A stretch of 64,000 nt of DNA from Escherichia coli (GTDB lineage Bacteria; Pseudomonadota; Gammaproteobacteria; Enterobacterales; Enterobacteriaceae), in assembly GCF_030013205.1 (NCBI RefSeq), contig NZ_CP122648.1. One strand, written 5' to 3'. Under the pieces are notes generated by a model. The model did not search any database. It was not told the origin of the DNA and saw only the letters and a program-made list of their open reading frames with translations. The position numbers and the translations under genes are program-made. Below are positions 6,703 to 28,138 of the stretch, one piece after another. Within the stretch, counting starts at the first letter, position 1. Each line of letters opens with the position of its first letter.

Positions 6703-6954
6703 CTCCTTTGGATCAATACGAGTTGATATTTGTTACAAAACATTTTGATTTTATCAGATTTTTTTTTATTGATAAGTGTCAATTGATTAGCTGGTATAGA
6801 GTGAGACATATAGAAGGGCAGATCTGTATCAGTAGTGATGCAAAAATCCCACAGTTTCATGGAATTTTTGCATTTAGAGCCGTGAGATAGGGTGCCTTAT
6901 CGACCTTACCCTGGCAACCGATTGACGGGGGATTACTCCCCCGTCGCGGTTTCC

Positions 6955-7095
6955 TTACTGCTTACACTGTAAGAACGCCGCAAACTCCGCTCCCCAGAAA
7001 CTCATCCGTATTTCGCACAGCGAACCGTGCAACATCCAGATGATGAGGATTACCGTCACGCAGAACGTGATGGCTGTAAGCGATTTTTGCGACAT
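6955..7095 (-). CDS. hok: Hok/Gef-family type I toxin (46 aa)
   Basis: Unlisted short ORF MSQKSLTAITFCVTVILIIWMLHGSLCEIRMSFWGAEFAAFLQCKQ: single TM helix followed by SLCEIR and E-F/V-AAF motifs typical of Hok/Gef; AAGGAG Shine-Dalgarno 9 nt upstream; structured flanks. Confidence 0.65.
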   Translation of the reverse strand: MSQKSLTAITFCVTVILIIWMLHGSLCEIRMSFWGAEFAAFLQCKQ

Positions 7096-7285
7096 AGCAC
7101 TTGCTCCTTTTCCGGAGAGGCGCTAACCTTTCACTTGCTTAGGGTAGACGGTTAGGGCCTCGGTTAAACAAAAGTGTTTTCCGGGGCCTTTCCACATCTG
7201 GCCTTCGGGTATTCCCTCCGACCATCAGCCGAAAGGCACCCGCGCGTAATCTATCGCTTTTTTGTTACTCCGGCAATTCTGCTTG

Positions 7286-7546
7286 TTAATTCTGAGGTAA
7301 AGGCAAACTCATCTGATTGTTTCCCCTGTGTGAAGCTGGTAGCTCATGCCACGGGATACCTTCTGAAGAGTGAACGCCGGAGGCGTGTTTCGATGTGAAT
7401 TTATGGAAAGCTTCCAGTGTTGAGAAGCATACGCCGCATTCCAGATTGTTACACTGGTAATACTTTTGCCGCACGGTGTTTGAATCATTTTCCGGACGAC
7501 TTGTGCGGATACGGGCAGATGCGCCACAAAGCGGACAACGGAACAT
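7286..7546 (-). CDS. ogr: Ogr/Delta-type zinc-finger late transcription activator
   Basis: 86-aa ORF MFRCPLCGASARIRTSR...YYQCNNLECGVCF, with the Cys-X2-Cys...Cys-X4-Cys pattern and N-terminal similarity to P2 Ogr. Confidence 0.85.
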   Translation of the reverse strand: MFRCPLCGASARIRTSRPENDSNTVRQKYYQCNNLECGVCFSTLEAFHKFTSKHASGVHSSEGIPWHELPASHRGNNQMSLPLPQN

Positions 7547-7737: not shown

Positions 7738-8760
7738 ATGGGAAGAGATATAACGCTGTACCCTAAAAAAGCAACTAGAAACGAACTTAAAAATTACCTT
7801 GAAAATTTAGGTTTTAAAAGGTGTAAACATTTGTGGGAATGGCCCCAAGGAACGTTGAATTACTCTTGGTTTGATGATACGGACTTCAAATCTACAGATG
7901 GAGTTTCGGCTGATATATATCCTGTTTCAAATGACGAATTACACATATCTGGTAATAAATGGGCATTGCATGTGCGTAATTTATATAGCGCTAGTTGGCA
8001 TGATGTAAAAATGCTTAATGATGTTCTAAAAGGCGCAAGGAGTCTTTTTGGTGGAACACTTATAGGTGATTATGGGAAAAATAGGTACGCTCCTCTATGG
8101 AAGGATTCTAGTAGTCCGATCAGTCGTGGCATTTCTTCAATATTTAATCATGTCCATCATGAGATTTCCGCTGTTAAACATGCCTTACCTGAACCTTCTA
8201 TTAAATTAAACCTACCGGAAGATGGCGGCTTATCCGAATACTTTGATTACATGCAATGTATGGATCCCAGTAGAGTTATATATAATGGATTAGTACCTTT
8301 TGCGGTTGCTATGTTTGAATACTTTTTCTCTAGAGCTTTTCAAATACTTATAAAGTACGATCCTTTCGCAATAGCAAAAAGAACATCGTATAAGCAAAAA
8401 GTTGATTTTGATATTCTGCTTGAGATAGAGAAAGGAAATATTTCAATAGAAAGTGTTATTGCAAGAAATTACACTTTTCAAAACTTAACCCACCTAAACA
8501 AAGCATATAAAGAGTGGCTGGATATAGATGTGAGAGCGATTCTTTATAAGAAAAAAAGAATTGGAAAATCAGTTGATTTTCTTGAGAATCGAATTTCTGA
8601 AATCATACAATATAGACATGGGATAGTTCATCACTTTGAGTTGGATAGGACCTTAAATCGGGATGGATATATTCATATATTAGATGCGCTAGAAAAAAGC
8701 ATAATTGAATTTATCCATTACATAGAAGGCAAATACAAATTTAAATTAAATGCGTATTAA
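7738..8760 (+). CDS. Orphan AT-rich cargo gene; hypothetical protein with HEPN-like R-x4-H motif near the C-terminus (candidate abortive-infection/defence protein)
   Basis: 340-aa ORF on the strand opposite the flanking late genes D and ogr; low GC; strong start context; C-terminal ...YRHGIVHHFELDRT...; followed by a hairpin. Confidence 0.6.
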   Translation: MGRDITLYPKKATRNELKNYLENLGFKRCKHLWEWPQGTLNYSWFDDTDFKSTDGVSADIYPVSNDELHISGNKWALHVRNLYSASWHDVKMLNDVLKGARSLFGGTLIGDYGKNRYAPLWKDSSSPISRGISSIFNHVHHEISAVKHALPEPSIKLNLPEDGGLSEYFDYMQCMDPSRVIYNGLVPFAVAMFEYFFSRAFQILIKYDPFAIAKRTSYKQKVDFDILLEIEKGNISIESVIARNYTFQNLTHLNKAYKEWLDIDVRAILYKKKRIGKSVDFLENRISEIIQYRHGIVHHFELDRTLNRDGYIHILDALEKSIIEFIHYIEGKYKFKLNAY

Positions 8761-8880: not shown

Positions 8881-9990
8881 TCACTCTGTTTCTGCTATCC
8901 ATTCCGGGATTTTTGCCTCAAGCTCAAGCTGTGTGGTAAAGCCGCTGTTATCAATGGTGTGCTCGGCTTTCGCAATAATCCAGTCCTGATTATCAATCTC
9001 GCTTTTAAATCCTGTTACCGTGCCATGCATTTCGGGGTAGAGTTCTGCACGTCCACGCACCAGCGTGATGGAAAACGATGCGGCTCCGCGTTGTAGCTGC
9101 TGCCACTTTGCCGCCGCTGCGCGTCTTGCTGCCTGCTCGTTCTGATAAGTCTTGCGTAACACAAACACATTGCCTTCCGCGCCTTCCATATAATCACCTT
9201 CACGGCTGCTGCTTTTCTCCTTTTTGGGTTTTGGCGGTTTGCGGCGTTTCACGCTGACTTTTTTCTTTTTCCCGTAATTAAGATCAAGCCAGTAAGCGCG
9301 TACCCCCGTATACGCCTCGCGGTCAGCAATGCGGAACTGATGGCGATCGCCGCTGCTGCGTGTGATGGCGAACGATGGCAACGGCTGGCCCTGTGCGTTC
9401 ACGCCACCGCCGGGCATGATGAATAACAGATTACCGCTTTTTACCGTGGTGATTGCGCCCAGCATTTCCGCCATGCGCGTAAGGAAGGACATGTCGCTTT
9501 CTTCAGTCTGGTCGGCGTGGTCGATTTCGATATCCATCAGCATTTCGCTGATTTGCGGTTTCAGGCCGTACCGATGAGCGATGGCGGATACCACACGTTC
9601 AACGGTCACATCATGCCAGGACGCCTCACGTTTAACATTAAATTCATCCCGAAAATCTGCGCTTCTGGCTGAAACAGTCAGCCTGTCCGGCGGTCCTTCG
9701 TGAGCGATTTCATCAATAATGTAAGTGCCTTTTTCTGTCAGCGGTTCCCCTTTCCAGCCAATGAGAACCGTCAGACGCGCGCCCCGTGGCGGTAGCTGCA
9801 ACTGGCCATCGGCATCATCCAGCGTGATGGTGAGCTGGTCCGCCTCAAATCCCCGGTTGTCGGTCAGTGACAGGCTCATCAGGCGTTCTGCCACGCCGGA
9901 CAGCGTTTTACCCTCGGCGAGAATATCAAAATCCGGCATTTTCACGGGGTCTGTGCCCTGACTGAGCAATTGCATGGTGGTGTCGGTCAT
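8881..9990 (-). CDS. P2 gpD-like tail protein (late control gene D family)
   Basis: ORF 8881..10122; likely true start is ATG at 9990, preceded by GGGAGGG (MTDTTMQLLSQGTDPVK...); Lys-rich central stretch and overall gpD-like size. Confidence 0.75.
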   Translation of the reverse strand: MTDTTMQLLSQGTDPVKMPDFDILAEGKTLSGVAERLMSLSLTDNRGFEADQLTITLDDADGQLQLPPRGARLTVLIGWKGEPLTEKGTYIIDEIAHEGPPDRLTVSARSADFRDEFNVKREASWHDVTVERVVSAIAHRYGLKPQISEMLMDIEIDHADQTEESDMSFLTRMAEMLGAITTVKSGNLLFIMPGGGVNAQGQPLPSFAITRSSGDRHQFRIADREAYTGVRAYWLDLNYGKKKKVSVKRRKPPKPKKEKSSSREGDYMEGAEGNVFVLRKTYQNEQAARRAAAAKWQQLQRGAASFSITLVRGRAELYPEMHGTVTGFKSEIDNQDWIIAKAEHTIDNSGFTTQLELEAKIPEWIAETE

Positions 9991-10147
9991 CTGTTCCCTC
10001 CCTGTGCGGCATGGTCGCATGTGCGTGCGGAGGGGGTTACTGCTTTTTGTTGTCGCCGTGGCGGGAGAATAGCGCAGGGGTGAGATTACGCGCGTGGTGG
10101 GTGATGATTGTTGCTGAATCATTTAACGGATACAAGGGGCTGAAGCT

Positions 10148-12438: not shown

Positions 12439-15232
12439 CATCCGGGTCGCTTTCAGCGCCGTTGACAGGCTGACCCGGCCTGCCGAAAACGCCCGCCGCC
12501 TGATGGGGCAGTTTGGTGACTCCATCCAGCGAACGCAGGGGGCGATCAAAAATCTCGAGCGTCAGGCGCGTTCATTTGAGCGCGCCCGTGACGCTGTCAG
12601 TAAAGCGGATGCTGGCATATTGAAAGCACGACGCCAGCTTAACGCCCTTAATCAGTTACAACGCACGGGTACAGTGCTCAGCGAAAAACAACAAAAGCTG
12701 ATGCAGCAGTTAAGCACCCGGCTTGAACGCCTGAATGAATCGCGCACACGGGAAATTCAGAAAATGCGGGAGCTTGGCGGAGAGCTGAAACGCCACGGCA
12801 TTTCCCTGACAGGCAGCGATAACACCATCCAGCAGGCCATCAGACGCACCGAACAGTACAACAACCAGCTTGAACGCGAACGGCAGGCGCTTGCGCGTGT
12901 AACACGGGCGCGTGAGCGGTATTCGCGCGCGCAGGAAACAGCGGGAAAACTGAAAACAGGTGGTGCGCTGGCAATTGGTGCGGCAACGGCGGGCGGCTAT
13001 GCTGCCGGGCGTTTTTTGCAGCCTGCGATCGGGTTCGGCAAAGAGATGTCCCGCGTTCAGGCACTGACGCGAATCGACAAAAACAGCCCGCAGTTTAAGG
13101 CGCTGCGTGAGCAGGCGTTAAAACTTGGCTCTGAAACACAGTTTACTGCGAGTGATGCCGCCAGTGGGCAGAGCTTTCTGGCAATGGCTGGTTTTACTCC
13201 GCAGGCCATTCAGGCCGCATTGCCCGGTGTTCTTAATATGGCGCTGGCAGGTGGCGTCGAACTCGGCGAGACGGCTGATATAGGCTCCAATATCCTCACA
13301 CAGTTCAACCTGACAGCCGATCAAATGGACCGTGTTGGCGATACGCTGACAGCAGCATTCACCCGGACCAATACTGATTTACGCGCGCTGGGCGAAACCA
13401 TGAAGTATACCGGTCCGGTTGCCGCAAAACTTGGTATCAGTCTTGAAGAAGCGGCGGCCATGGCCGGGATGCTTGCCAATAATGGTCTTCGCGGAAGCGA
13501 TGCTGGTACGGCCATGCGCGCAAGTCTGTCCCGCCTTGCATCACCGCCAAAAGCTGCGGCTGATGCACTGAAAGAGCTGGGGGTGTCAGTTGCTGACGCC
13601 AGAGGCAAAATGCGCCCGATGGAGGATGTGCTGCTTGATCTCTATAAGGCGACACAAAAATACGGACAGGTGGACCAGGTTTCCTTCTTCAAGGACATCG
13701 CCGGAGAAGAGGCGTTCGTTGGTTTGCAGACGCTTGTTGCGGCGGCTGGTTCAGGAGAGCTGCAAAAACTGACCAGAGAATTGCAGGGGGCAAGGGGAGA
13801 GGCCGATCGCGTCGCAAAAGTAATGGCCGATAATCTTGATGGGGACCTGAAAAATCTCGACAGCGCATGGGAAGGTCTTCGTATTCGCATCAGTGATCTG
13901 GTTGACGGTCCGCTGCGTTCTGTCACGCAGTGGCTCACGCGGGTGCTTGAAAAAATCACCTCGCTGGCGCAGGCCCATCCGGTACTGACGCGCCAGCTAC
14001 TGATAGCAGGCGGTGCGTTGCTGGCAATGACTGCAACGATTGGCTCGTTGTCGCTGGTTATTGGGGTGCTTTACGGGAAGCTGGCCACCCTGCGTCTTGG
14101 TTTTGACATTCTTACCCGGTCAATGAATGTCGTCAGGGTGTTGCCTGCGCTGTGGGGAATGGTGACGGGTTCCGTTTCTTTACTGGGAGGCGCCATCGGG
14201 GCGTTGTTCAGTCCGGTTGGTCTTATCGTGGCTGCGCTTGCCGGAGCTGCCGTTCTTATCTGGAAATACTGGGATCCCATCAGGGCATTTTTTGCCGGGG
14301 TGTTCAGCGGGATTATGGAAAGGCTGACCCCGTTGCGCGAAACCTTTGAACGGTTTGGTCCTGTTTTTGACACAATCGGAAGCGGGATCAGCCAGGTGTT
14401 TAACTGGTTTAAATCGCTGCTGTCACCGATGGAGTCCAGCAAGGAAACGCTGGATAAATGTACCAGTGCTGGCGAGATATTCGGTAACGTTCTTGGCGGT
14501 GCGTTACAGCTTGTTCTGACACCTGCAAAAATGCTACTGGATACGCTGGCGTGGATACTTGAAAAACTTGGCGTCCTTCCGGATGAAGCGGAAAGGGCGC
14601 GCAAGAAAATCGAAGACGCACAGCGTGCGGCCATTCTTCAGGACAAGGTTGTCTTGCTTCAGGGTGACCTGGCGAAAATCAATCCGCCGAAGCCTGTGGA
14701 AAATGGCAATGGCACCGGAGGTAATAAACCCAAAGACAACAAACCGCTCACAGACAGCAATACCGGGACGCTACGCAGACTCAGCAAAATTGCTGATAAC
14801 ACAGGTAAGCTGGTTGATGAGACGAAAAAACGCATTGGCCCCGGCGATATTGTCTTTAAGAACCTGCCCCGCGCACTTGCTGTTCGTGGAGAGTGGCAGG
14901 AGCGGAAGATTGCGCAGGTCAGTAAGCCTGCCCCCGCAATTAATATCACACCCGTGGTCCCGGCTCCGCTGCCTCCGGCGCTGGTCCCTGTTGTTGCGGC
15001 CAGCTCCCGCCCGGTGGCGGAGGCCATACGATCTCCAGTGGCATCAGTTCCTGTAACTTCCCGTAACCGGGAGCCTGTTGCCTCCGGATTTGGTGGTGAA
15101 ATTCATGTTCATCTGCATAACGTTGTTACGCAGAATCCCCGCGAACTGGCGAAACTGGTCGGTGAAATGGTCAGGGCAGAAATGGAACGGCGCGCCCGTG
15201 CCGGGCGTGGCAGTTTTTACGATAAAGATTGA
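12389..15232 (+). CDS. Tail tape measure protein (P2 gpT-like)
   Basis: 947 aa, long coiled-coil-rich N-terminus and C-terminal hydrophobic segments, position after E/E'; true start probably a downstream Met (12416 or 12425). Confidence 0.85.
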   Translation: MSGRHFAAGMQTMKTLDIRVAFSAVDRLTRPAENARRLMGQFGDSIQRTQGAIKNLERQARSFERARDAVSKADAGILKARRQLNALNQLQRTGTVLSEKQQKLMQQLSTRLERLNESRTREIQKMRELGGELKRHGISLTGSDNTIQQAIRRTEQYNNQLERERQALARVTRARERYSRAQETAGKLKTGGALAIGAATAGGYAAGRFLQPAIGFGKEMSRVQALTRIDKNSPQFKALREQALKLGSETQFTASDAASGQSFLAMAGFTPQAIQAALPGVLNMALAGGVELGETADIGSNILTQFNLTADQMDRVGDTLTAAFTRTNTDLRALGETMKYTGPVAAKLGISLEEAAAMAGMLANNGLRGSDAGTAMRASLSRLASPPKAAADALKELGVSVADARGKMRPMEDVLLDLYKATQKYGQVDQVSFFKDIAGEEAFVGLQTLVAAAGSGELQKLTRELQGARGEADRVAKVMADNLDGDLKNLDSAWEGLRIRISDLVDGPLRSVTQWLTRVLEKITSLAQAHPVLTRQLLIAGGALLAMTATIGSLSLVIGVLYGKLATLRLGFDILTRSMNVVRVLPALWGMVTGSVSLLGGAIGALFSPVGLIVAALAGAAVLIWKYWDPIRAFFAGVFSGIMERLTPLRETFERFGPVFDTIGSGISQVFNWFKSLLSPMESSKETLDKCTSAGEIFGNVLGGALQLVLTPAKMLLDTLAWILEKLGVLPDEAERARKKIEDAQRAAILQDKVVLLQGDLAKINPPKPVENGNGTGGNKPKDNKPLTDSNTGTLRRLSKIADNTGKLVDETKKRIGPGDIVFKNLPRALAVRGEWQERKIAQVSKPAPAINITPVVPAPLPPALVPVVAASSRPVAEAIRSPVASVPVTSRNREPVASGFGGEIHVHLHNVVTQNPRELAKLVGEMVRAEMERRARAGRGSFYDKD

Positions 15233-15238
15233 GGAGTC

Positions 15239-15733
15239 ATGGCCATGATGATGATCTACGGCATGTTTGTTTTTGAGCTGCGCACGCTGCCGCATCAGCA
15301 GTTACAGCAAAACAAAAGCTGGCGGCATGTGAAAAATGAACGCGTTAACCGTTCAGCAAGCTGGCAGTATATCGGTGCAGGTGATGATCGCATCGTTCTT
15401 TCTGGTGTGCTTTATCCTGAAATTACAGGTGGCGAAGTGTCGCTGTCGCTGCTGACCACGCAGGCGTATACAGGACGCCCCTGGCCTCTTATTGATGGCG
15501 TCGGGCAGATTTACGGCATGTATGTCCTGACCGAAACGAATACGACCCGTTCCGAGTTTGATCGCTACGGTAAGGCGAAAAAGATAGAATTTTCACTGAC
15601 CCTTGAACGCTGTGATGAGGATTTGCGGGAGCGCCTGCAATCCTCATCGTTCAGCGATATGCTGTCCGGCTTCAAAGATAAAGTGACATCATCCCTTAAC
15701 AGCGCGGCCAGTTCAGTTAAAGGGCTGTTCTGA
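15239..15733 (+). CDS. Tail protein (P2 gpU-like)
   Basis: 164 aa MAMMMIYGMFVFELRTLPHQ...; N-terminal similarity to P2 U; directly follows the tape measure gene. Confidence 0.75.
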   Translation: MAMMMIYGMFVFELRTLPHQQLQQNKSWRHVKNERVNRSASWQYIGAGDDRIVLSGVLYPEITGGEVSLSLLTTQAYTGRPWPLIDGVGQIYGMYVLTETNTTRSEFDRYGKAKKIEFSLTLERCDEDLRERLQSSSFSDMLSGFKDKVTSSLNSAASSVKGLF

Positions 15734-15903
15734 TTTAATGCTGGCCACTCATACCCTCATACCTGGTAATAAGTGGCCAGTCTTAACACTCACCATTTGA
15801 TTGCACCAGTGTTAACGATTTGTTACTGGACATCAGGCACGCTGGATAGCCAGTAGAAACATACCATTAAAATTATTACAATAATTGGTCACATGATTAT
15901 CTT

Positions 15904-16467
15904 ATGCTGAATAATAGAGATATGAATATTAATGAACTTAAAGATTGTATTCACTATGAAGTAATCGGTAGCGAGCGTCCTTTCTCCTGGCGAAAGGCAA
16001 TTGTTCGCGCAATAAAACATAGAAGAGTTCGTTATTTATTTTGGTGGCGCATAGCCAAATACCTTTTTGATAAAGGCGGATACTGTCGGAAGATTGCGGG
16101 GAAAATAGAACGTTTCATTCTTGATAAATATAATGTAACAGTCCCTTTAACTGTAAATATAGGGAAAGGCTTTGATATTTCTTATCTCAACAGTGTTGTT
16201 ATCGGTCACAAAGTAACAATCGGTGAAAATTGTTCAATAAAACCAGGGGTAACTATTGGGCTGCGTGGTGATTTTAATGATATGGATATTGTTATAGGAC
16301 ATAATGTGACCATTGGTTGTAATGCCACCATTCTTGGTGGCAAAGTGCGTATAGGAAACAATGTCACAATAGGTGCTCATGCATTGGTATTGCATGATAT
16401 TCCAGATGATTCAACATTCATCACTAAATTTCAGTCTGAAGTTATCTGCTCGTCCTCCCGCACATAA
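15904..16467 (+). CDS. Hexapeptide-repeat (left-handed beta-helix) acyl/acetyltransferase, cargo at the Z/fun position
   Basis: 187 aa with tandem [LIV]-G-x-x-x-x hexapeptide repeats ([22 protein letters not shown]...[16 protein letters not shown]...); AT-rich; convergent with and overlapping the 3' end of the tail-fibre assembly gene. Confidence 0.7.
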
Positions 16468-17048
16468 CCCTGATTCATCAGCTCTGGCCATACGATATCC
16501 GGAGCTGTACTGGTGTCAATTCTACTCACTAATACTCTGTATTTTCTCCAGGAATCCAGTTGTGAATTTTCCTCGTTTGTTGCTATTTCAAGATTAACTG
16601 CATCCTGCAGAATTGCGATGTTATCTGTTGCTTCCTGGATCAACCTTGCCTTTTTCTCTTCCGCTTCCCGTATCCGAAACAGTTTTTCTGCTTCCTCATC
16701 CTTCACCCAGGATACGCCGTCCCACTTCTGATACTCCCCTGCTGGCGACAACCAGGTGACATTCTCTGGTAGCGGTCCGGGTTCAGAAATAAACAACGCG
16801 TCCCCCGATGCCACGTCATAGACCGTTTTACCACGATGGTCTTCAACAATATTCCACGATTCATTTTCACTGTTAAAAACTGCCACAAAGCCAGCAGGAA
16901 TTTCCGGTGGGGCGATATCTGTAGAATTGGCTGGCAGCCCTGTATGAGGTGGAATATATGCGTCACCTTCACCAATAAACTCATTAGTTCCGGCCAGCAG
17001 GTTATAAATTTTTACAGTACGTGATTGTTCACTCATTCTGAATGCCAT
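16431..17048 (-). CDS. Tail fibre assembly protein (P2 gpG / Tfa family)
   Basis: 205 aa; typical Tfa N-terminal region; start overlaps the stop of the upstream tail-fibre fragment (TAATG). Confidence 0.8.
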
Positions 17049-17395
17049 TATGCAAGCCTCACAATATAATTAAATGCGATGTTTTTAACGGTGTTTTCCG
17101 CGTTACCAGCAGCGTTAACGGTGATGGTGTGTCCATGTGAACCAATCGCAACAGAGTGCGTATGAGCGCCAATAGCTGATTGAGTGTGACGCCATACGCC
17201 CCACGGACCATCAGTGCCATTCCACTTATTGGCGAGTTTACGCATGTATACATTGCCGTCTCTCGTGATAAAACGTTGCGTGCCTGCAAAATTGCCAGCT
17301 GCAAAAACCTCAAGCACACCGACAGCATTATCTTCCGGGAAATTTTTCTCCAGTGTTGCGTTGGTGGATGTTGCTTTAGACCAGATGCCAGTGCA
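17048..17395 (-). pseudogene. Tail fibre gene (H-like), 3' fragment only
   Basis: Open frame from the stop at 17396..17398 to 17048 encodes ...[40 protein letters not shown], a typical tail-fibre C-terminus; no N-terminal part; fused out of frame to the truncated capsid gene. Confidence 0.7.
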
Positions 17396-18033
17396 TCAGC
17401 GTTCGCATACTTACCCGCGTGCGCCACGGTGTTGTCCATGTTACGGGAGGTCAGCGTCACGTCATTCATAACGCGTTCGCTGGCGTCGGTTCTGATGTGC
17501 TCCAGCCACCCCACGTTAACGTCCTGAAGCAACTTGTTGGTGCTGAAGTTGGACTCATCCGCGTGAGACGTGCCGTTGAAACCGATCATGATTCGGTCAA
17601 GCGCCACCTGTCGGGCAATCTGTGCGCTGATGCGGGACTGAAAATCGCTGTGTGCCGACCAGGCATCAAGCTGCGGATACGAAATAAACGTGTCGTAGTT
17701 CACCTGTTCGCACTGGTATTTGCGGTTTTTCAGATCAACCACGTTATTCGGGTTACGGCGTTTTGTTCCGTCATAACTGGTATTCGTGCGCGCAATCGGT
17801 CCTGTGGTATCCAGGAGGATTTTTTCGCCCTTCTGGTCGGTCACGCCGATCACGTTAATTCTTTTTGTAAATTCGGTGCTTTCCTTTGAGGCGTTTTCAA
17901 AACGCTGCTGTACCGAGGGTTCCACGGTAAATCGCGATACCAGTGCGGAAACCGGGATATTGTTAAGCGACGCCTGCTGCGCCATATAGCAACCCAGCTT
18001 GTTGCGGGTAATATCTGACATCACCAGATTCAT
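17381..18033 (-). pseudogene. Major capsid protein gene (P2 gpN-like), truncated after ~217 codons
   Basis: N-terminal 217 aa align with P2 N (FTVEPSV, GEKI, KYxCxQ, IMxGFNG, LQDVxVGWL, RVM); after ADALAS the frame runs into tail-fibre DNA and yields low-complexity sequence. Confidence 0.75.
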
Positions 18034-18056
18034 AAAAAATTTGCTCCTTTGTCTTA

Positions 18057-22966: not shown

Positions 22967-23278
22967 TTACTCAGGAAATAACGCCCGGATATTCCCAGCC
23001 ATCTGGCTGGTTATCTTAGCCACTGGTGCAGACTGTGCTTCAAACTTTTTTGAGCTGATTTGTGTCACAGGTAACATCTCATCATCAGCCCATGCGGCCA
23101 GTCGGTAAGCCTCTGCCGGATTCGTCTTCAGAAGTGCCAGCCCGGCCAGAAAAGCCACGCGTTGGCCGCTTTTGCGGGCTTCTGGTGTAAGGCTGTCCAG
23201 CCAGGCGCATGCTTCTCCTTCGTTCTTGACGGCAGCTGGCTTCAGATAGAAACTTATCCGTCTGGTTGGTGTTGTCAT
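22967..23278 (-). CDS. parR: ParR-like centromere-binding adaptor
   Basis: 103 aa from the ATG at 23278, preceded by AGGAG 7 nt upstream and only 4 nt after the parM stop; resembles R1 ParR (RRISFYLKP...LDSLTPEARKSGQRVAFLAGLALL). The longer annotated ORF 22967..23413 overlaps parM and is rejected. Confidence 0.7.
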   Translation of the reverse strand: MTTPTRRISFYLKPAAVKNEGEACAWLDSLTPEARKSGQRVAFLAGLALLKTNPAEAYRLAAWADDEMLPVTQISSKKFEAQSAPVAKITSQMAGNIRALFPE

Positions 23279-23282
23279 TGGT

Positions 23283-24242
23283 TTACTCCTTGTCCATTGC
23301 GTACAGCCCATTAACCAGAGCAAACTGTGGCACCCCGTCCGCGATGAAAGTCGCATTAACTCCGCAGGCTTCGCGGATAGCGGGTGCCACAATCTCCGCC
23401 CCGCCACCGACAACCATCACCCGCCCGTAACCCGAAAAACCCGCCAGCGCGCGGATCACGCGTTGTTTCAGTGTTTCTTCCTTTTCACGAATAACCGCCA
23501 TCAGGCTGGCGTAATGCGCGTCATTGTGGATGTGCTGGCGCAGCCAGGCTTCATCATGGCGATGTTCGATAATGGTATTGGCGATGTGGTGACTGGTACG
23601 CATACCGTTAGTGGCCATCACCGACAGTACGGCATCGGCCATCAGGGAAACGCCTACGTGTGGATCGCAAAACACCTGGCTGATACCTGCCAGTTGTCCC
23701 TGAACCTTTGCCACATCCAGCGTGGTTCCGCCTAAATCCACAATCAGCAGGGATTCAAACGGACTCATGTCAGCCAGTGCTTTAAAGCCAGCCGGAATGG
23801 ATTCAGGCATAACCCGTACGTTACGGATAGTGAATGCTTCGCCGTTCTGGTACTCCACCGGGCGCATGACGTTCGCTTTTTTGCGGTTGATGTTGGCCAT
23901 GTCCGGCTGTGCGTTTGTGTCGAAATATTCGCTCAGTGGCAGGGTGACAACCACATCCACTTCCTGTGGTGTGATGCCTGATTTGACCAGCGCGTGATGA
24001 ATGGCAATGACATTCACATCGCTGTACTGGTATTGCGTGTCGGTCGTCTGGACAAAGCGATCGCTGACCGGATCAAAACCATAGCGCACGCCATCAAGCA
24101 TGTAGTTCGCGGGCTGCGTGCCACCGAACGGCGCAGACCATTCCGACTTGAAGCTGTTCGGGCTGATGGCGTTGCGGCGTTCGCCGTTCTCAGTCCATGC
24201 CAGCTTGATGTTGGTGGAGCCGTCATCGATACAAATTTTCAT
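23283..24242 (-). CDS. parM: ParM/StbA-family actin-like segregation ATPase
   Basis: 319 aa MKICIDDGSTNIKLAW...SPNSF...VMPESIPAG...LIVDLGGTTLD...VMVVGGGAE; close to plasmid R1 ParM along the whole length. Confidence 0.85.
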   Translation of the reverse strand: MKICIDDGSTNIKLAWTENGERRNAISPNSFKSEWSAPFGGTQPANYMLDGVRYGFDPVSDRFVQTTDTQYQYSDVNVIAIHHALVKSGITPQEVDVVVTLPLSEYFDTNAQPDMANINRKKANVMRPVEYQNGEAFTIRNVRVMPESIPAGFKALADMSPFESLLIVDLGGTTLDVAKVQGQLAGISQVFCDPHVGVSLMADAVLSVMATNGMRTSHHIANTIIEHRHDEAWLRQHIHNDAHYASLMAVIREKEETLKQRVIRALAGFSGYGRVMVVGGGAEIVAPAIREACGVNATFIADGVPQFALVNGLYAMDKE

Positions 24243-24274: not shown

Positions 24275-24382
24275 TTACGGGATTCTGAAATCCCGTTTTT
24301 GCCTGTTTTATGCGCGCTTCATATATCGCGGCGCGTTTTTTGCTCATTTACGGGATTTGTGAATCCCGTTTCTGTCTGTTTT
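24275..24382. promoter_or_regulatory. parC-like centromere/operator: two 35-bp direct repeats, each holding a 20-bp palindrome, flanking a putative promoter
   Basis: Repeat A 24275..24309 (ACGGGATTCTGAAATCCCGT) and repeat B 24348..24382 (ACGGGATTTGTGAATCCCGT), 73 bp apart, directly upstream of parM; repeat B overlaps the last codons of the A-like ORF. Confidence 0.6.
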
Positions 24383-27141
24383 TTGTTTCCACTGGTCAGG
24401 CCTCCCCGCAGCAGGTCTGCTTTGCGGCGGGCGCGTTCAGTGGTTTCACTGATTCTCTGTGCGTGCTCTGCGTCGCGGATGGCGCGCAGCATGTCAGAAA
24501 GCACGGTAACGGGTGTTTTCATGGTGTTCTGGTCCTGCTGAAGTGTGGATGCCAGGCGTGCGGCGGCTTCGGGGTCTGATGCCCCCAGCTGTTCCAGATA
24601 GCTGGCGACCGGGTTATGGCGGATCTCCGTGCTGCTTACGCCGTGGTTACGGCTCAGGCGCTGCCAGAGCTGCGTGATCCGGCTGTCCGGTCGGGTATCC
24701 GGTTTGCGTACAATTTCAAATCCCTGCGGTGCAATGATGCTGCCGTCGACGTACAGACTGCCGCCCCGTAACAGGTGCTGCATCTGCTGTTCACCGATAT
24801 GCAGGCCGAGAGATTCAGCAGACTCCCGCCATTCTTTAGCGAGTAACTCGTGGTTATCAGGCAAAGGCCGTGGCTGTTTGCGGCTCTGTGTCCAGTTCTG
24901 CATTTCATCACTGCTGTTTTTTGCCTGTTTGTCACGCAGCGAACGCATCAGCGCCCGGCGTTCGTGCCGTTTCAGTGAGCGCATCCATTCATTCACGTCA
25001 ACGCCGTCAGGAAGCTGCGGCCACGGTGCTGGCCGTTCTTCCGGCTGTTCTGTCCCGTTGTTGTCCGTTTCCTGTACACGGGGACAGTTATTGCCACGAG
25101 TCCAAGGGGCGGCAGGGCCGCCCTGAAGGTCAAAACCATTTTCGCGGGCGCTGTCTTCCGCTTCCGGTTTACGTCTTACCAGCTTCCAGTTATCCGGATG
25201 TGTGCACACACGGGAAGACTCCCCGATGAGCGGTGACCAGATCCCGTAAATCTGTACGCTCTGTTCGCCGTAATCGTTCAGCTCATCTGCGAGGTCGTAG
25301 GCGGTGCGAATCAGGTAGTCTTTGCGTGGAACAAGTACGCCGCCCTGTTTTTCAATGTAGGAGGCAAAACACCCGGCATCAGCGGCAGCGAGCACTGCAT
25401 CCATTGCGTCATCCTTCAGTCGTTGCGGGCCTTCCGGGTTGCGTGCCATCTGGCTGGCAAGGCGGCGCAGTTCACGCCACACCTGACGGGAGGGGATGCC
25501 AAAGAACTGGAACTGGCGGACCCGGTGAAGGCGCGCCCAGCCGATGGCGCGCTCCACGCTCTCGGCCATTGATTTTCCGGTTTCGTGGTCAACGCGTGGC
25601 TTGCCCGTTTTCGGGTCGATACCATCCACGGCGCGGCTGTCCAGGTTCTTTCCGATGTAGGTGGCGATGTAGCTGGTTGGCGTGCCTTTTGAGCCGTCGA
25701 CGTACTCCGCCTTAAAACGCGGAGTTATGTCATCGCCCAGCTCGTGGCGGTCTTCCTGAATGGCAATATCGCAGACGTGGGACACGATGGTTTCAATCTC
25801 GTCCGGATGTGCAAAGACCATCATATGCCAGTGCACAGTGCCGTCATGGTGAGGCTCCACCGTGCGGATGCCATACCAGCGAAGACCGTCGCGGTTCAGT
25901 TTTTTGCGGACCGCCGCAAAAAACGTGTTAACCAGGTAATCGCTGGAGTCGCGCATGGTGGCCCCGTTCCATTTGGGATTCGGATGACCGTTCTCTGTTG
26001 TGGCGTGGTATTTTGACGGGCAGGTGACAGTCAGAAACACCGCTCTGTCGCCACGGGCTTCGGCCAGAAGTTCCAGTCCCTTCATGGTGGCCATCATTTC
26101 TGCCTTACGGTGAACCGGGTTACTTACTCCCGCGTAATACACCGTCTCGAGATCAATCGTGAACCCGTCTTCATTTTCCAGCATGAAACTTTTCAGGAAA
26201 TCGCGTGTTTTCTCGCGCTGTGCGCGAAACTCGCTTAACGCGTCCTGGCTCAGATAGGGTGATGTTTTTCTGGAAACCAGACAGGCGGCGCGGAGTTGTT
26301 CTTCTCTCCACTCGCAACGTAACAGCCACAGTTTGCGTTTCCACCATTCCGCACAGGTCAGGCGAAGGATTGCGCCCGGCAGCAGCTCCGTGTCCGGTTC
26401 GTTCCTCCGGTCTTTGTCTGTTGTCAGTGCGTCATAATGTGGAGGCATGGCGTGCAGGTGTAACGCCATGCGGGCCAGCATCTGATACGCCTTCAGCGTT
26501 ACATCCATGGTCAGTTCGCCATCAGTAGCGCCAAAGCCATCGCAGAGTTTTTCGAAGGTGCTGCTGAACATCGCCGCCGTCATGGTGGCCAGCGTCTGTA
26601 TCTGGTGTTTGTTGAGCTGCGGCAGGTAAAGCAAATCGTCCAGGCGTTCGCGTCCGGCAAGGGAGCGATAACCCGGTGTCAGCCAGCGGTGATCGGTGCG
26701 GTCCAGACGTTCGAATATTTTGCGCAGGGTTCCGCGCGCGTAGCGTTCCGCCTGCCAGCTCTTTTTGCCTTTCTGACGATCGGCTTCCTGCTTCTTGCGC
26801 AGGAAGGAGAGGTGGCGAATAAGCGGATCGCGCAGATAGGACGGCAGCAGGCGCAGCGAGGCCATGGCTTCATCCACCGCGCCGCGTGCCTGTTTTCTGG
26901 CGTCTCCTGCCAGTGTGATGGTTTTGTCCTGTTTTTCCTGTGCGTCCAGGCTTTTATTAATCAGGTTGCCCAGCGGCGTGGCGGAGAACGCCGCATCAGC
27001 CATTTCCTGGCGGCGCTCGTTCTCTACCCGGTAGGCATCCAGCCAGGAGGAAAGCGCGGATTCAGGAGCGGAGATCCCCGTTCCTTCACGCCCCACTGCG
27101 TGGCGCGGTTGTTGCCAGTCCCTGATGTACTCTGCCGTCAT
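24319..27141 (-). CDS. Replication initiation endonuclease (P2 gpA-like, rolling-circle)
   Basis: 940-aa ORF containing SKYH and VEPHHDGTVHWHMMVF, matching the P2 A signature (VEPHHDGTPHWHMMLF) and the catalytic Tyr region; longer than P2 A (761 aa), so start and C-terminal extent are uncertain. Confidence 0.85.
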   Translation of the reverse strand: MTAEYIRDWQQPRHAVGREGTGISAPESALSSWLDAYRVENERRQEMADAAFSATPLGNLINKSLDAQEKQDKTITLAGDARKQARGAVDEAMASLRLLPSYLRDPLIRHLSFLRKKQEADRQKGKKSWQAERYARGTLRKIFERLDRTDHRWLTPGYRSLAGRERLDDLLYLPQLNKHQIQTLATMTAAMFSSTFEKLCDGFGATDGELTMDVTLKAYQMLARMALHLHAMPPHYDALTTDKDRRNEPDTELLPGAILRLTCAEWWKRKLWLLRCEWREEQLRAACLVSRKTSPYLSQDALSEFRAQREKTRDFLKSFMLENEDGFTIDLETVYYAGVSNPVHRKAEMMATMKGLELLAEARGDRAVFLTVTCPSKYHATTENGHPNPKWNGATMRDSSDYLVNTFFAAVRKKLNRDGLRWYGIRTVEPHHDGTVHWHMMVFAHPDEIETIVSHVCDIAIQEDRHELGDDITPRFKAEYVDGSKGTPTSYIATYIGKNLDSRAVDGIDPKTGKPRVDHETGKSMAESVERAIGWARLHRVRQFQFFGIPSRQVWRELRRLASQMARNPEGPQRLKDDAMDAVLAAADAGCFASYIEKQGGVLVPRKDYLIRTAYDLADELNDYGEQSVQIYGIWSPLIGESSRVCTHPDNWKLVRRKPEAEDSARENGFDLQGGPAAPWTRGNNCPRVQETDNNGTEQPEERPAPWPQLPDGVDVNEWMRSLKRHERRALMRSLRDKQAKNSSDEMQNWTQSRKQPRPLPDNHELLAKEWRESAESLGLHIGEQQMQHLLRGGSLYVDGSIIAPQGFEIVRKPDTRPDSRITQLWQRLSRNHGVSSTEIRHNPVASYLEQLGASDPEAAARLASTLQQDQNTMKTPVTVLSDMLRAIRDAEHAQRISETTERARRKADLLRGGLTSGNKKQTETGFTNPVNEQKTRRDI

Positions 27142-27816: not shown

Positions 27817-28138
27817 GGTGTGGCCCCTTGTGTAGTAAGTTGTGAAAACTCACCATCCAGAGCTGCGAAACTGTGGGTGGCGAGACGTACGAGGTTCGCA
27901 GTACCGGCTACACAAGAACCCGGCCCGACCGAAGTCGGCCCCGTACGCCCCGCCATAATTCTGACGCGAAAAAAACGTGGCAATACAGTACGCACAAAAA
28001 AACCGCTGGCGCGGTTGTGCGCTTGTGTAGTCAGCAGGCTGCGAAACCCGGCACCCGTTTTGTGAGGTGCAGCGGAAATGTAACCTGACTGATTGCGGCA
28101 TGGCAAGCGGTTTTTTTGTGTGTGCATGTTCTGGTTTC

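Follow-up and report, generated by a model that had tools for sequence, protein, structure and literature searches.

We analysed a 64,000-nucleotide (nt) window of the Escherichia coli contig NZ_CP122648.1 (RefSeq assembly GCF_030013205.1) and found that the segment at 6890-7285 holds a hok/sok-family type I toxin-antitoxin cassette on a defective P2-like prophage, a reading to which we assign a probability of about 90%. Protein family, leader, RNA elements and a predicted antisense Sok RNA all agree on it, in support of an earlier note that had proposed a hok-like type I toxin locus here from the letters alone. The cassette is already known, being annotated, common (about one-third of complete E. 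coli genomes) and catalogued, and as a discovery it carries little weight. It is of modest specialist use for its fixed position at the end of the prophage gene ogr and as a test of the rule, drawn from plasmid R1, that hok depends on translation of an upstream frame, mok.

The toxin gene is a reading frame of 46 codons plus stop at 6955..7095 on the minus strand, encoding the peptide MSQKSLTAITFCVTVILIIWMLHGSLCEIRMSFWGAEFAAFLQCKQ, and was placed both from the list of open reading frames (ORFs) and from family matches. The peptide matched Pfam HOK_GEF (PF01848) with an E-value of 4.3e-7 over model positions 5-42 of 42 (38/42 covered) and PHROG 251, 'MokW-like host killing', with an E-value of 2.5e-23. 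The NCBIfam HokA model was matched with an E-value of 6.1e-9, with NCBIfam HokA and Hok scores falling far below their cut-offs (35.8 bits for the HokA equivalog NF007290, whose cut-off is 89 bits). Identity to the peptide was 43% for K-12 HokA and 39%, over 31 amino acids, for R1 Hok, and five residues (C12, T14, E28, E37 and A39) were invariant in its alignment with HokA, HokB, HokC and R1 Hok. By these comparisons the peptide is a member of the Hok family, and not HokA. A PADLOC search returned no match for Hok or for the neighbouring proteins. The Shine-Dalgarno (SD) sequence of the frame, AAGGAG, was read from the letters at 7104-7109 (minus strand; mRNA 133-138, where mRNA position p on the hok-sense minus strand corresponds to window coordinate 7242 - p), with 8 nt between it and the ATG.

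The full-length hok mRNA is predicted to span 6890..7241 on the minus strand (about 352 nt), with its 5' end set by homology at G7241 and its 3' end inferred from the fbi element. The predicted hok promoter lies at 7248..7276 on the minus strand (-35 TTGCCG at 7276-7271, a 17-nt spacer, -10 TAGATT at 7253-7248, and 6 nt to +1), and the spacing from its ATTGC and TA.ATT motifs to GGGTGCC stays constant among copies that are otherwise unrelated in their upstream DNA. The transcript carries tac/fbi, ucb, dcb and a 3' stem-loop at positions homologous to those of R1 and of K-12 hokB. The tac element (7227..7241, minus; mRNA 1-15, GGGUGCCUUUCGGCU) is complementary to fbi (6890..6904, minus; mRNA 338-352), which is its partner in the full-length RNA; in the truncated RNA its partner is ucb. 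The ucb box GGCCCC (7183..7188, minus; mRNA 54-59) has two partners, a GAGGCC box in the full-length RNA and tac in the truncated RNA, each with a pair probability of 0.99, and is homologous to R1 A70-C75, with the same A.C mismatch as described in PMC9841398. The GAGGCC box (7156..7161, minus; mRNA 81-86), aligned with hokB, hokC and R1, is the homolog of the R1/hokB mok Shine-Dalgarno sequence and has no start codon downstream of it. The dcb box (7114..7128, minus; mRNA 114-128, GGUUAGCGCCUCUCC) is at the same time the hok anti-SD and pairs with the hok SD in one state and with GAGGC in the other; the Sok -10 lies on its complement, and GGTTAGCGCCTC within it is invariant in 51 sequences. 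The 3' stem-loop (6924..6945, minus; mRNA 297-318, GACGGGGGAGUAAUCCCCCGUC) is the presumed stop for 3' exonucleolytic trimming, comparable to R1 nt 342-359.

The Rfam model RF01794 matched the leader at 7241-7082 with 51.9 bits (E-value 1.9e-10 over a 1.1-kb search), below its gathering threshold of 59 bits, and the leader was absent from the gathering-threshold scan of the window. That scan missed the locus because the cluster to which it belongs scores low on this model, its sister copies reaching just 33-50 bits; as controls, the hok-sense strand between the +1 and the start codon of hok gave 118 bits for hokC, 110 for hokB and 89 for R1. RF01794 is titled 'sok antitoxin' and in practice models the hok leader, not the antisense RNA, as seen on loci L013, L014 and L015 and on window 7082-7241.

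An antisense Sok gene with its own promoter and terminator hairpin is predicted inside the leader, from its fold and from comparison with annotated sokB and sokC. Its putative promoter lies at 7101..7129 on the plus strand (-35 TTGCTC at 7101-7106, a 17-nt spacer, -10 TAACCT at 7124-7129), with the -10, and within the -35 the TTG, unchanged throughout 51 sequences. The annotated K-12 sokB promoter (TTGCCG, 17 nt, TAAGAT, 7 nt to +1) has the same spacing. The predicted Sok RNA of about 57 nt (7137..7193, plus; +1 at G7137, ends inferred) would consist of a 17-nt single-stranded 5' tail, a hairpin at 7154-7190 and a UUUCC tail. Set side by side, Sok and sokB both leave 7 nt between the -10 and an initial G, and both have a single-stranded tail of 16-17 nt and a GGCCUCGG...CGGGGCC hairpin. 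A strict consensus promoter scan missed both the hok and the sok promoter, and both rest on homology and conservation.

We then folded the hok transcript and found it to be unusually stable. The 362-nt minus-strand RNA had a minimum free energy (MFE) of -160.1 kcal/mol, compared to -119.8 +/- 5.2 kcal/mol for dinucleotide shuffles (z -7.76; 0/100 shuffles as stable), and a 15-pair tac/fbi helix joined its 5' and 3' ends in the MFE fold with a pair probability of 1.0. The hok SD was fully paired in the full-length fold, in a hairpin where CUCC masks it. Seven inverted-repeat pairs lie within 6890-7285, including an exact 9-nt pair at 6890-6898 and 7233-7241. The earlier note had described a 46-amino-acid ORF with the Hok/Gef signature, a strong Shine-Dalgarno sequence before it, some 350 bp rich in inverted repeats, and fold-back regulation with an antisense RNA of the hok/mok/sok type; the ORF, its SD, the repeats, the homology of protein and leader elements to R1 and chromosomal hok loci, and the promoter and hairpin geometry of an antisense RNA all bear it out, and the hok and sok parts of that reading hold. 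The mok part does not, as no mok frame overlaps the hok start in this allele. Its boundaries also fit the landmarks, 6890 being the last fbi base and 7285 lying one base short of the ogr stop codon.

Comparison across copies supported the full-length fold. For the copy set, exact 15-mer matches in IMG/VR were pooled with copies from E. coli, plasmids and phages; chance 15-mer matches in unrelated phages were removed by requiring GGTTAGCGC downstream, and the set comprised 51 sequences, 50 of them distinct. Standard pairs filled 92.0% of cells in the 50 distinct copies, compared to 38-43% when partners were slid, and compensatory changes occurred at 28 pairs against a shuffle mean of 18.8 (0/500 shuffles reached 28). 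The 3' stem-loop was 98% paired, with compensatory changes at five of its nine pairs, and the tac/fbi helix was 95.5% paired. Between families, tac/fbi varies on both sides at two positions (R1 GGCGCUU/AAGCGCC versus GGGUGCC/GGCACCC here). The truncated-form helices tac/ucb and GAGGC/dcb are almost invariant in the cluster, so that covariation is uninformative about them either way; such near-invariance is expected of sequences that serve several pairings as well as the Sok promoter and terminator. Decayed copies exist, including one in E. albertii with a stop at codon 2 (L011), one that is interrupted (L057) and one that is frameshifted (L103).

The cassette is the last element of the prophage, a defective member of the P2-like Peduoviridae, and lies between ogr and the prophage-chromosome junction. 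The gene for the ogr/Delta-like zinc-finger late activator occupies 7286..7546 on the minus strand (an identical gene is so named in RefSeq; NCBIfam NF007241, E-value 1.6e-11, below cut-off), and the hok +1 follows its stop codon by 44 nt on this strand; the placement immediately downstream of ogr given in the earlier note was thus correct. The ORF is likewise conserved in related prophages, with an ogr homolog directly upstream in 80 of 96 IMG/VR copies and the same spacing in 75. The junction with neighbouring zinc-ribbon/TagO DNA falls at 6882-6892, within 10 bp of fbi. In P2 itself, ogr is followed by a rho-independent terminator 'for ogr transcript and F operon' and then by attP, with no hok. 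The inverted repeats could accordingly be taken for nothing more than the terminator of ogr and the late operon plus the attachment site of a P2-like phage, with a small ORF arising by chance, given that P2 has that terminator, Int arm sites, an IHF site and the attP core at the same place after ogr, and that the prophage junction here is within 10 bp of the last repeat. This is refuted by the occurrence of the same cassette away from ogr (after lom in Shiga toxin (Stx) phages, on IncI1 and IncF plasmids, and beside ykgM), by the significant family matches of the ORF, by the match of the leader to the hok covariance model, and by a ratio of nonsynonymous to synonymous substitution rates (dN/dS) below 1, and we regard its probability as vanishingly small.

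A 13-mer at the junction, CCCTATCTCACAG (6880-6892), overlaps the last three fbi bases and follows hok in many phage copies. It also occurs at approximately 2079-2091 of L138, bordering the zinc-ribbon/TagO flank of a strain in which a RES-toxin gene takes the prophage's place. The window held no second copy of CCCTATCTCACAG, and none was present at the integrase end; no direct repeat of at least 12 nt links the hok end to the int end, and local alignment of the two was likewise unconvincing. The sequence CCCTATCTCACAG may represent the core of an attachment site, in overlap with the 3' end of hok.

We next consider mok, the point at which a cassette otherwise built like that of R1 departs from it. 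A frame scan that correctly detected mok in the R1 control found no frame started by ATG, GTG or TTG that reaches the hok SD in this allele. Among the 46 distinct alleles with an intact 46-codon hok, 27, this one included, had no frame reaching the SD, and the other 19 had one, which as in R1 was in every case the +2 frame. In the subfamily, the site corresponding to the mok AUG reads AAG, TCG, CAG, TTG or GTG. In R1, changes to the start codon of mok abolish toxicity, as do early mok stops (PMC9841398). The cluster thus amounts to a natural experiment on the need for mok, in which hok is kept by selection and the mok frame comes and goes.

These data allow for a decaying, translationally silent relic, in which the cassette, comparable to the inactivated hok loci of K-12, would have been disarmed by loss of the mok frame and would simply ride along in a prophage that is itself dead. 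Such a relic would account for the absence of an ATG-, GTG- or TTG-started frame reaching the hok SD, given that R1 needs mok translation up to that point (PMC9841398); the prophage itself has lost about 10.4 kb of capsid-to-tail-fibre genes, decayed copies of the cassette exist, and hokA and hokC of K-12 are disrupted by insertion sequence (IS) elements. However, both promoters, tac, ucb, dcb, the SD, the 3' hairpin and fbi are intact and nearly invariant in 50 distinct copies, and hok stays at 46 codons even though 27 of the 46 distinct intact alleles have no frame that reaches the SD. Among these mok-less alleles, hok dN/dS ranged from 0 to 0.59 and was mostly 0.15-0.35, even with 45 of 138 nt differing, subject to the caveat that RNA-structure constraints may distort dS and that the gene is short. 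As judged by these ratios, the 46-residue Hok is under purifying selection, which is hard to explain if Hok is never made, and we consider a silent relic unlikely.

Folding suggests instead that hok may be controlled without mok. We computed pair probabilities by partition-function folding of mRNA 1-352, of 1-320, and of 1-320 with the Sok-complementary segment 49-105 blocked. The tac-fbi pairing had a probability of 1.0 in the full-length RNA and was gone from the truncated RNA, in which fbi has been removed, as it was with the Sok target blocked. The tac-ucb pairing rose from 0 in the full-length RNA to 0.99 in the truncated RNA, ucb-GAGG fell from 0.99 to 0, and GAGGC-dcb rose from 0 to 0.93-0.96, and masking of 49-105 blocked all three of these pairings. 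The anti-SD pair C125-G138 had a probability of 0.99 in the full-length RNA, 0.05 in the truncated RNA, and again 0.99 with the Sok target blocked.

On this basis, the full-length, stable hok mRNA would be inert. Slow 3' trimming would take off fbi, upon which tac would re-pair with ucb, and the GAGGC so released would pair with the dcb box, which is the hok anti-SD, so that the hok SD opens. The short-lived Sok would bind at about mRNA 49-105 by means of its 5' tail, returning the anti-SD to the hok SD and probably directing cleavage by RNase III. Once Sok synthesis halted, Hok would be made and the inner membrane depolarised; such a halt could come about if the prophage DNA were lost, if an infecting phage shut off transcription, or if transcripts running on from ogr and the late operon collided with the sok promoter. 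As to the last of these, a scan found no terminator-like site on the minus strand between ogr and hok, so late transcription could read into the cassette against the sok promoter.

We therefore put forward, tentatively and as an idea whose chances we rate somewhat below even, that the cluster possesses a mok-free switch in which dcb doubles as the hok anti-SD, 3' processing opens the SD, and Sok recloses it by taking GAGGC from dcb. In the same proposal, the cassette replaces the P2-like ogr/late-operon terminator, and late transcription could silence the convergent sok promoter, tying release of Hok to lytic development. If Hok is translated without mok, the textbook R1 model is not family-wide, and annotation tools should not require mok.

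An active cassette could also be coupled to translation of a short upstream ORF, in that a ribosome ending on the 5' arm of the anti-SD hairpin would open the hok SD. A 24-codon ORF of this kind lies at 7123..7197 on the minus strand (ATG at 7197, mRNA 45; TAG at 7123-7125, mRNA 117-119); it ends 15 nt before the hok SD and is not a conserved gene. GAAGG precedes the ORF, which ends one base before the anti-SD arm GCGCCUCUCC; eight distinct alleles have exactly the same configuration, and R1 needs only translation up to the hok SD region (PMC9841398). However, the upstream ORF ranges from 1 to 61 codons among homologs, its end is scattered from 13 to 97 nt upstream of the hok ATG among alleles, and in one copy (L008) it is reduced to ATG-TAG. 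In each of the two predicted states the tac stem encloses its start region, and the invariance of ATGT at mRNA 45-48 is accounted for by base pairing. We consider coupling through this ORF improbable.

Several points weigh against a functional hok/sok cassette working by the proposed switch. Lacking a mok frame that extends to the hok SD, this copy would be silent under R1 rules. The hok SD is just partly open in the truncated form, with a mean unpaired probability of 0.15, C127-G136 still at 0.74, and two weak pairs persisting. RNAfold does not reproduce the experimentally established refolding of the truncated R1 mRNA, and as the same program fails there, the switch predicted here is a suggestive hypothesis. 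In addition, R1 has a comparable CUCUU/AGGAG potential and yet still needs mok. Within the copy set, tac/fbi changes are one-sided only, the 5' arm being fixed by the 15-mer search word (an ascertainment bias), so that no within-family covariation could show in that helix. The Rfam score lies below the gathering threshold, and the NCBIfam scores far below their cut-offs. Finally, the hok transcript, Sok and the toxicity of this exact allele are predictions from sequence, and the biological role is wholly inferred.

The role of hok/sok in R1 is post-segregational killing. Phage T4 is partially excluded by a relative system, as cited in PMC8621323. By analogy, the role of the cassette considered here is likely prophage stabilisation (addiction) and/or abortive-infection defence. 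In intact relatives the cassette may also help lysis, as hokW-sokW does, and this role is inapplicable in the window prophage because that prophage is defective, which counts against extending it here; for a defective prophage, stabilisation or defence is more plausible than lysis. A fixed place at the ogr end, beside the attachment junction in one Peduoviridae lineage, is a sensible one for a module that punishes loss of the prophage.

The earlier note called the ORF unannotated, which is true of the raw sequence; an identical ORF is annotated in RefSeq as WP_000078920.1, 'Hok/Gef family protein', and in the phage record NC_049343.1 as 'MokW-like host killing'. Over the 441 bases that surround the locus, identity is 100% both with E. 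coli strain 503025 and with Escherichia phage 500465-2 (Peduoviridae), and the locus is present in 1752 of 5426 complete E. coli genomes, in 198 phage records and on 35 plasmids. In E. coli STEC1012 (CP061270.1; L009, 1-770), two 46-amino-acid hok loci of the cluster stand in tandem beside serS, so the cassette can duplicate or accumulate at one site. A recent preprint catalogued 32,532 Hok loci and reported that hok is enriched in prophages (Escalera-Maurer et al., 2026; bioRxiv 10.1101/2025.08.07.668861). By peptide comparison the locus belongs to Hok cluster 72 of that catalogue, and HokA is its closest paralog in K-12. Entry 72_1621 is one residue (V15A) from the 46-residue peptide and 72_1589 is the Stx-phage version; both carry the label 'highly abundant cluster' and stand in the preprint's Table S2 of homologs selected for toxicity testing. 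Only 19_179, 60_1482 and 69_1540 are named in its text as non-toxic, from which we infer, by elimination, that 72_1621 is toxic. This, and the conservation of the ORF in related prophages, speak against the two grounds on which the earlier note would have given up its reading. Against that elimination, two rows of Table S2 have no construct name, and cluster 39 was uncloneable. The exact V15 allele did not appear in the available supplementary text, nor did the terms ogr, P2-like or Peduoviridae occur in the preprint, which states explicitly that mok was not analysed and did not analyse Sok or mRNA structure either. Within the literature library that we searched, no paper joined 'hok' and 'ogr'.

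The remainder of the prophage is partly decayed. Some 10.4 kb of the strain 503025 prophage, from capsid to tail-fibre genes and including the lysis and baseplate genes, is replaced here by 1.65 kb. The replacing segment (15739-17387, with flanks at about 15200-18050) holds ORFs for a hexapeptide-repeat O-acetyltransferase (15904-16467) and for tail-fibre assembly (16431-17048), together with the remnant of a tail-fibre gene, and the ORF of the capsid N-terminus (17059-18033) continues into it. Gene A, for the replication endonuclease, is an intact 940-codon ORF at 24319-27141 (minus) and a pseudogene with an internal stop in strain 503025 (L016, 14381-17203), so these two nearly identical prophages have decayed differently. 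The earlier note placed hok alongside parMR. A pair at 22967-24242 (minus), between replication gene A and the portal gene, has RefSeq homologs named ParM and partitioning/stability protein in a 98.7%-identical prophage, which supports the naming in part; the pair's own match is weak, the 319-residue protein matching NCBIfam ParM with an E-value of 5.9e-4 and the 103-residue protein giving no match.

Between tail gene D (8881-10122) and ogr, a 340-codon ORF lies on the opposite strand at 7738-8760 (plus), with a GC content of 0.30-0.37 compared to about 0.53 for the flanking phage genes. Neither PADLOC nor NCBIfam gave it a match, and RefSeq lists it as 'hypothetical'; in another P2-like prophage (L005) D stands beside ogr without such a gene, and the ORF has the look of inserted cargo. 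A C4 antisense RNA (27873-27960, minus; 83.2 bits) and an isrK Hfq-binding RNA (27996-28070, minus; 64.1 bits), both above their Rfam gathering scores, lie side by side in the prophage's early region, upstream of the replication gene.

Set against known systems, the locus shares much of its organisation with R1 hok/sok (parB), the paradigm type I system. In both, a stable mRNA is closed by tac/fbi, ucb pairs with the GAGG box with the same A.C mismatch, a dcb box follows, a GC-rich 3' hairpin precedes fbi, and a convergent Sok promoter has its -35 abutting the hok SD; the peptides share the SLCEIR and E..AAF motifs and belong to the same fold class. R1-type loci for this comparison were fetched with the Hok protein, and one truncated by IS150 (L003) was dropped in favour of L013; blastn of the locus against plasmids had returned only close copies and no R1-type hok/sok, which is too diverged. 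In the R1 control, fbi fell at nt 392-398 and the 3' hairpin at nt 342-359 of the 398-nt mRNA, as in the published map. The differences are that the leader is 146 nt here compared to 173 in R1, the mRNA about 352 nt compared to 398, Hok 46 residues compared to 52, and the distance from 3' hairpin to fbi 25 nt compared to 33; that the locus here is borne by a prophage and R1 hok/sok by a plasmid; and that the R1 mok AUG stands 8 nt after GAGG and opens a frame overlapping hok, whereas the locus here has CCCUAACCGUC with no start codon.

K-12 hokB shares with the locus the tac sequence GGGUGCC, the fbi sequence GGCACCC, AAGGCCCCG, AACCGAGGCC, and the Sok promoter spacing and hairpin, and differs in having the mokB AUG directly after GAGGCC, where the locus has none. 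K-12 hokA was rejected as a reference, its leader being broken by IS150 and degenerate after reconstruction. Among prophage-borne hok/sok systems, hokW-sokW of the Stx2 prophage Sp5 has been shown experimentally to be a toxin-antitoxin system of type I in which Sok vanishes on induction and Hok helps phage release (Takada et al., 2021, PMC8621323). It was considered as the nearest relative and set aside, HokW being a different paralog of 51 residues (MKQQKAM...) that falls in cluster 35 with HokD. The true relative of the locus is instead a separate 46-codon hok that follows lom in Stx phages, with 82% nucleotide identity.

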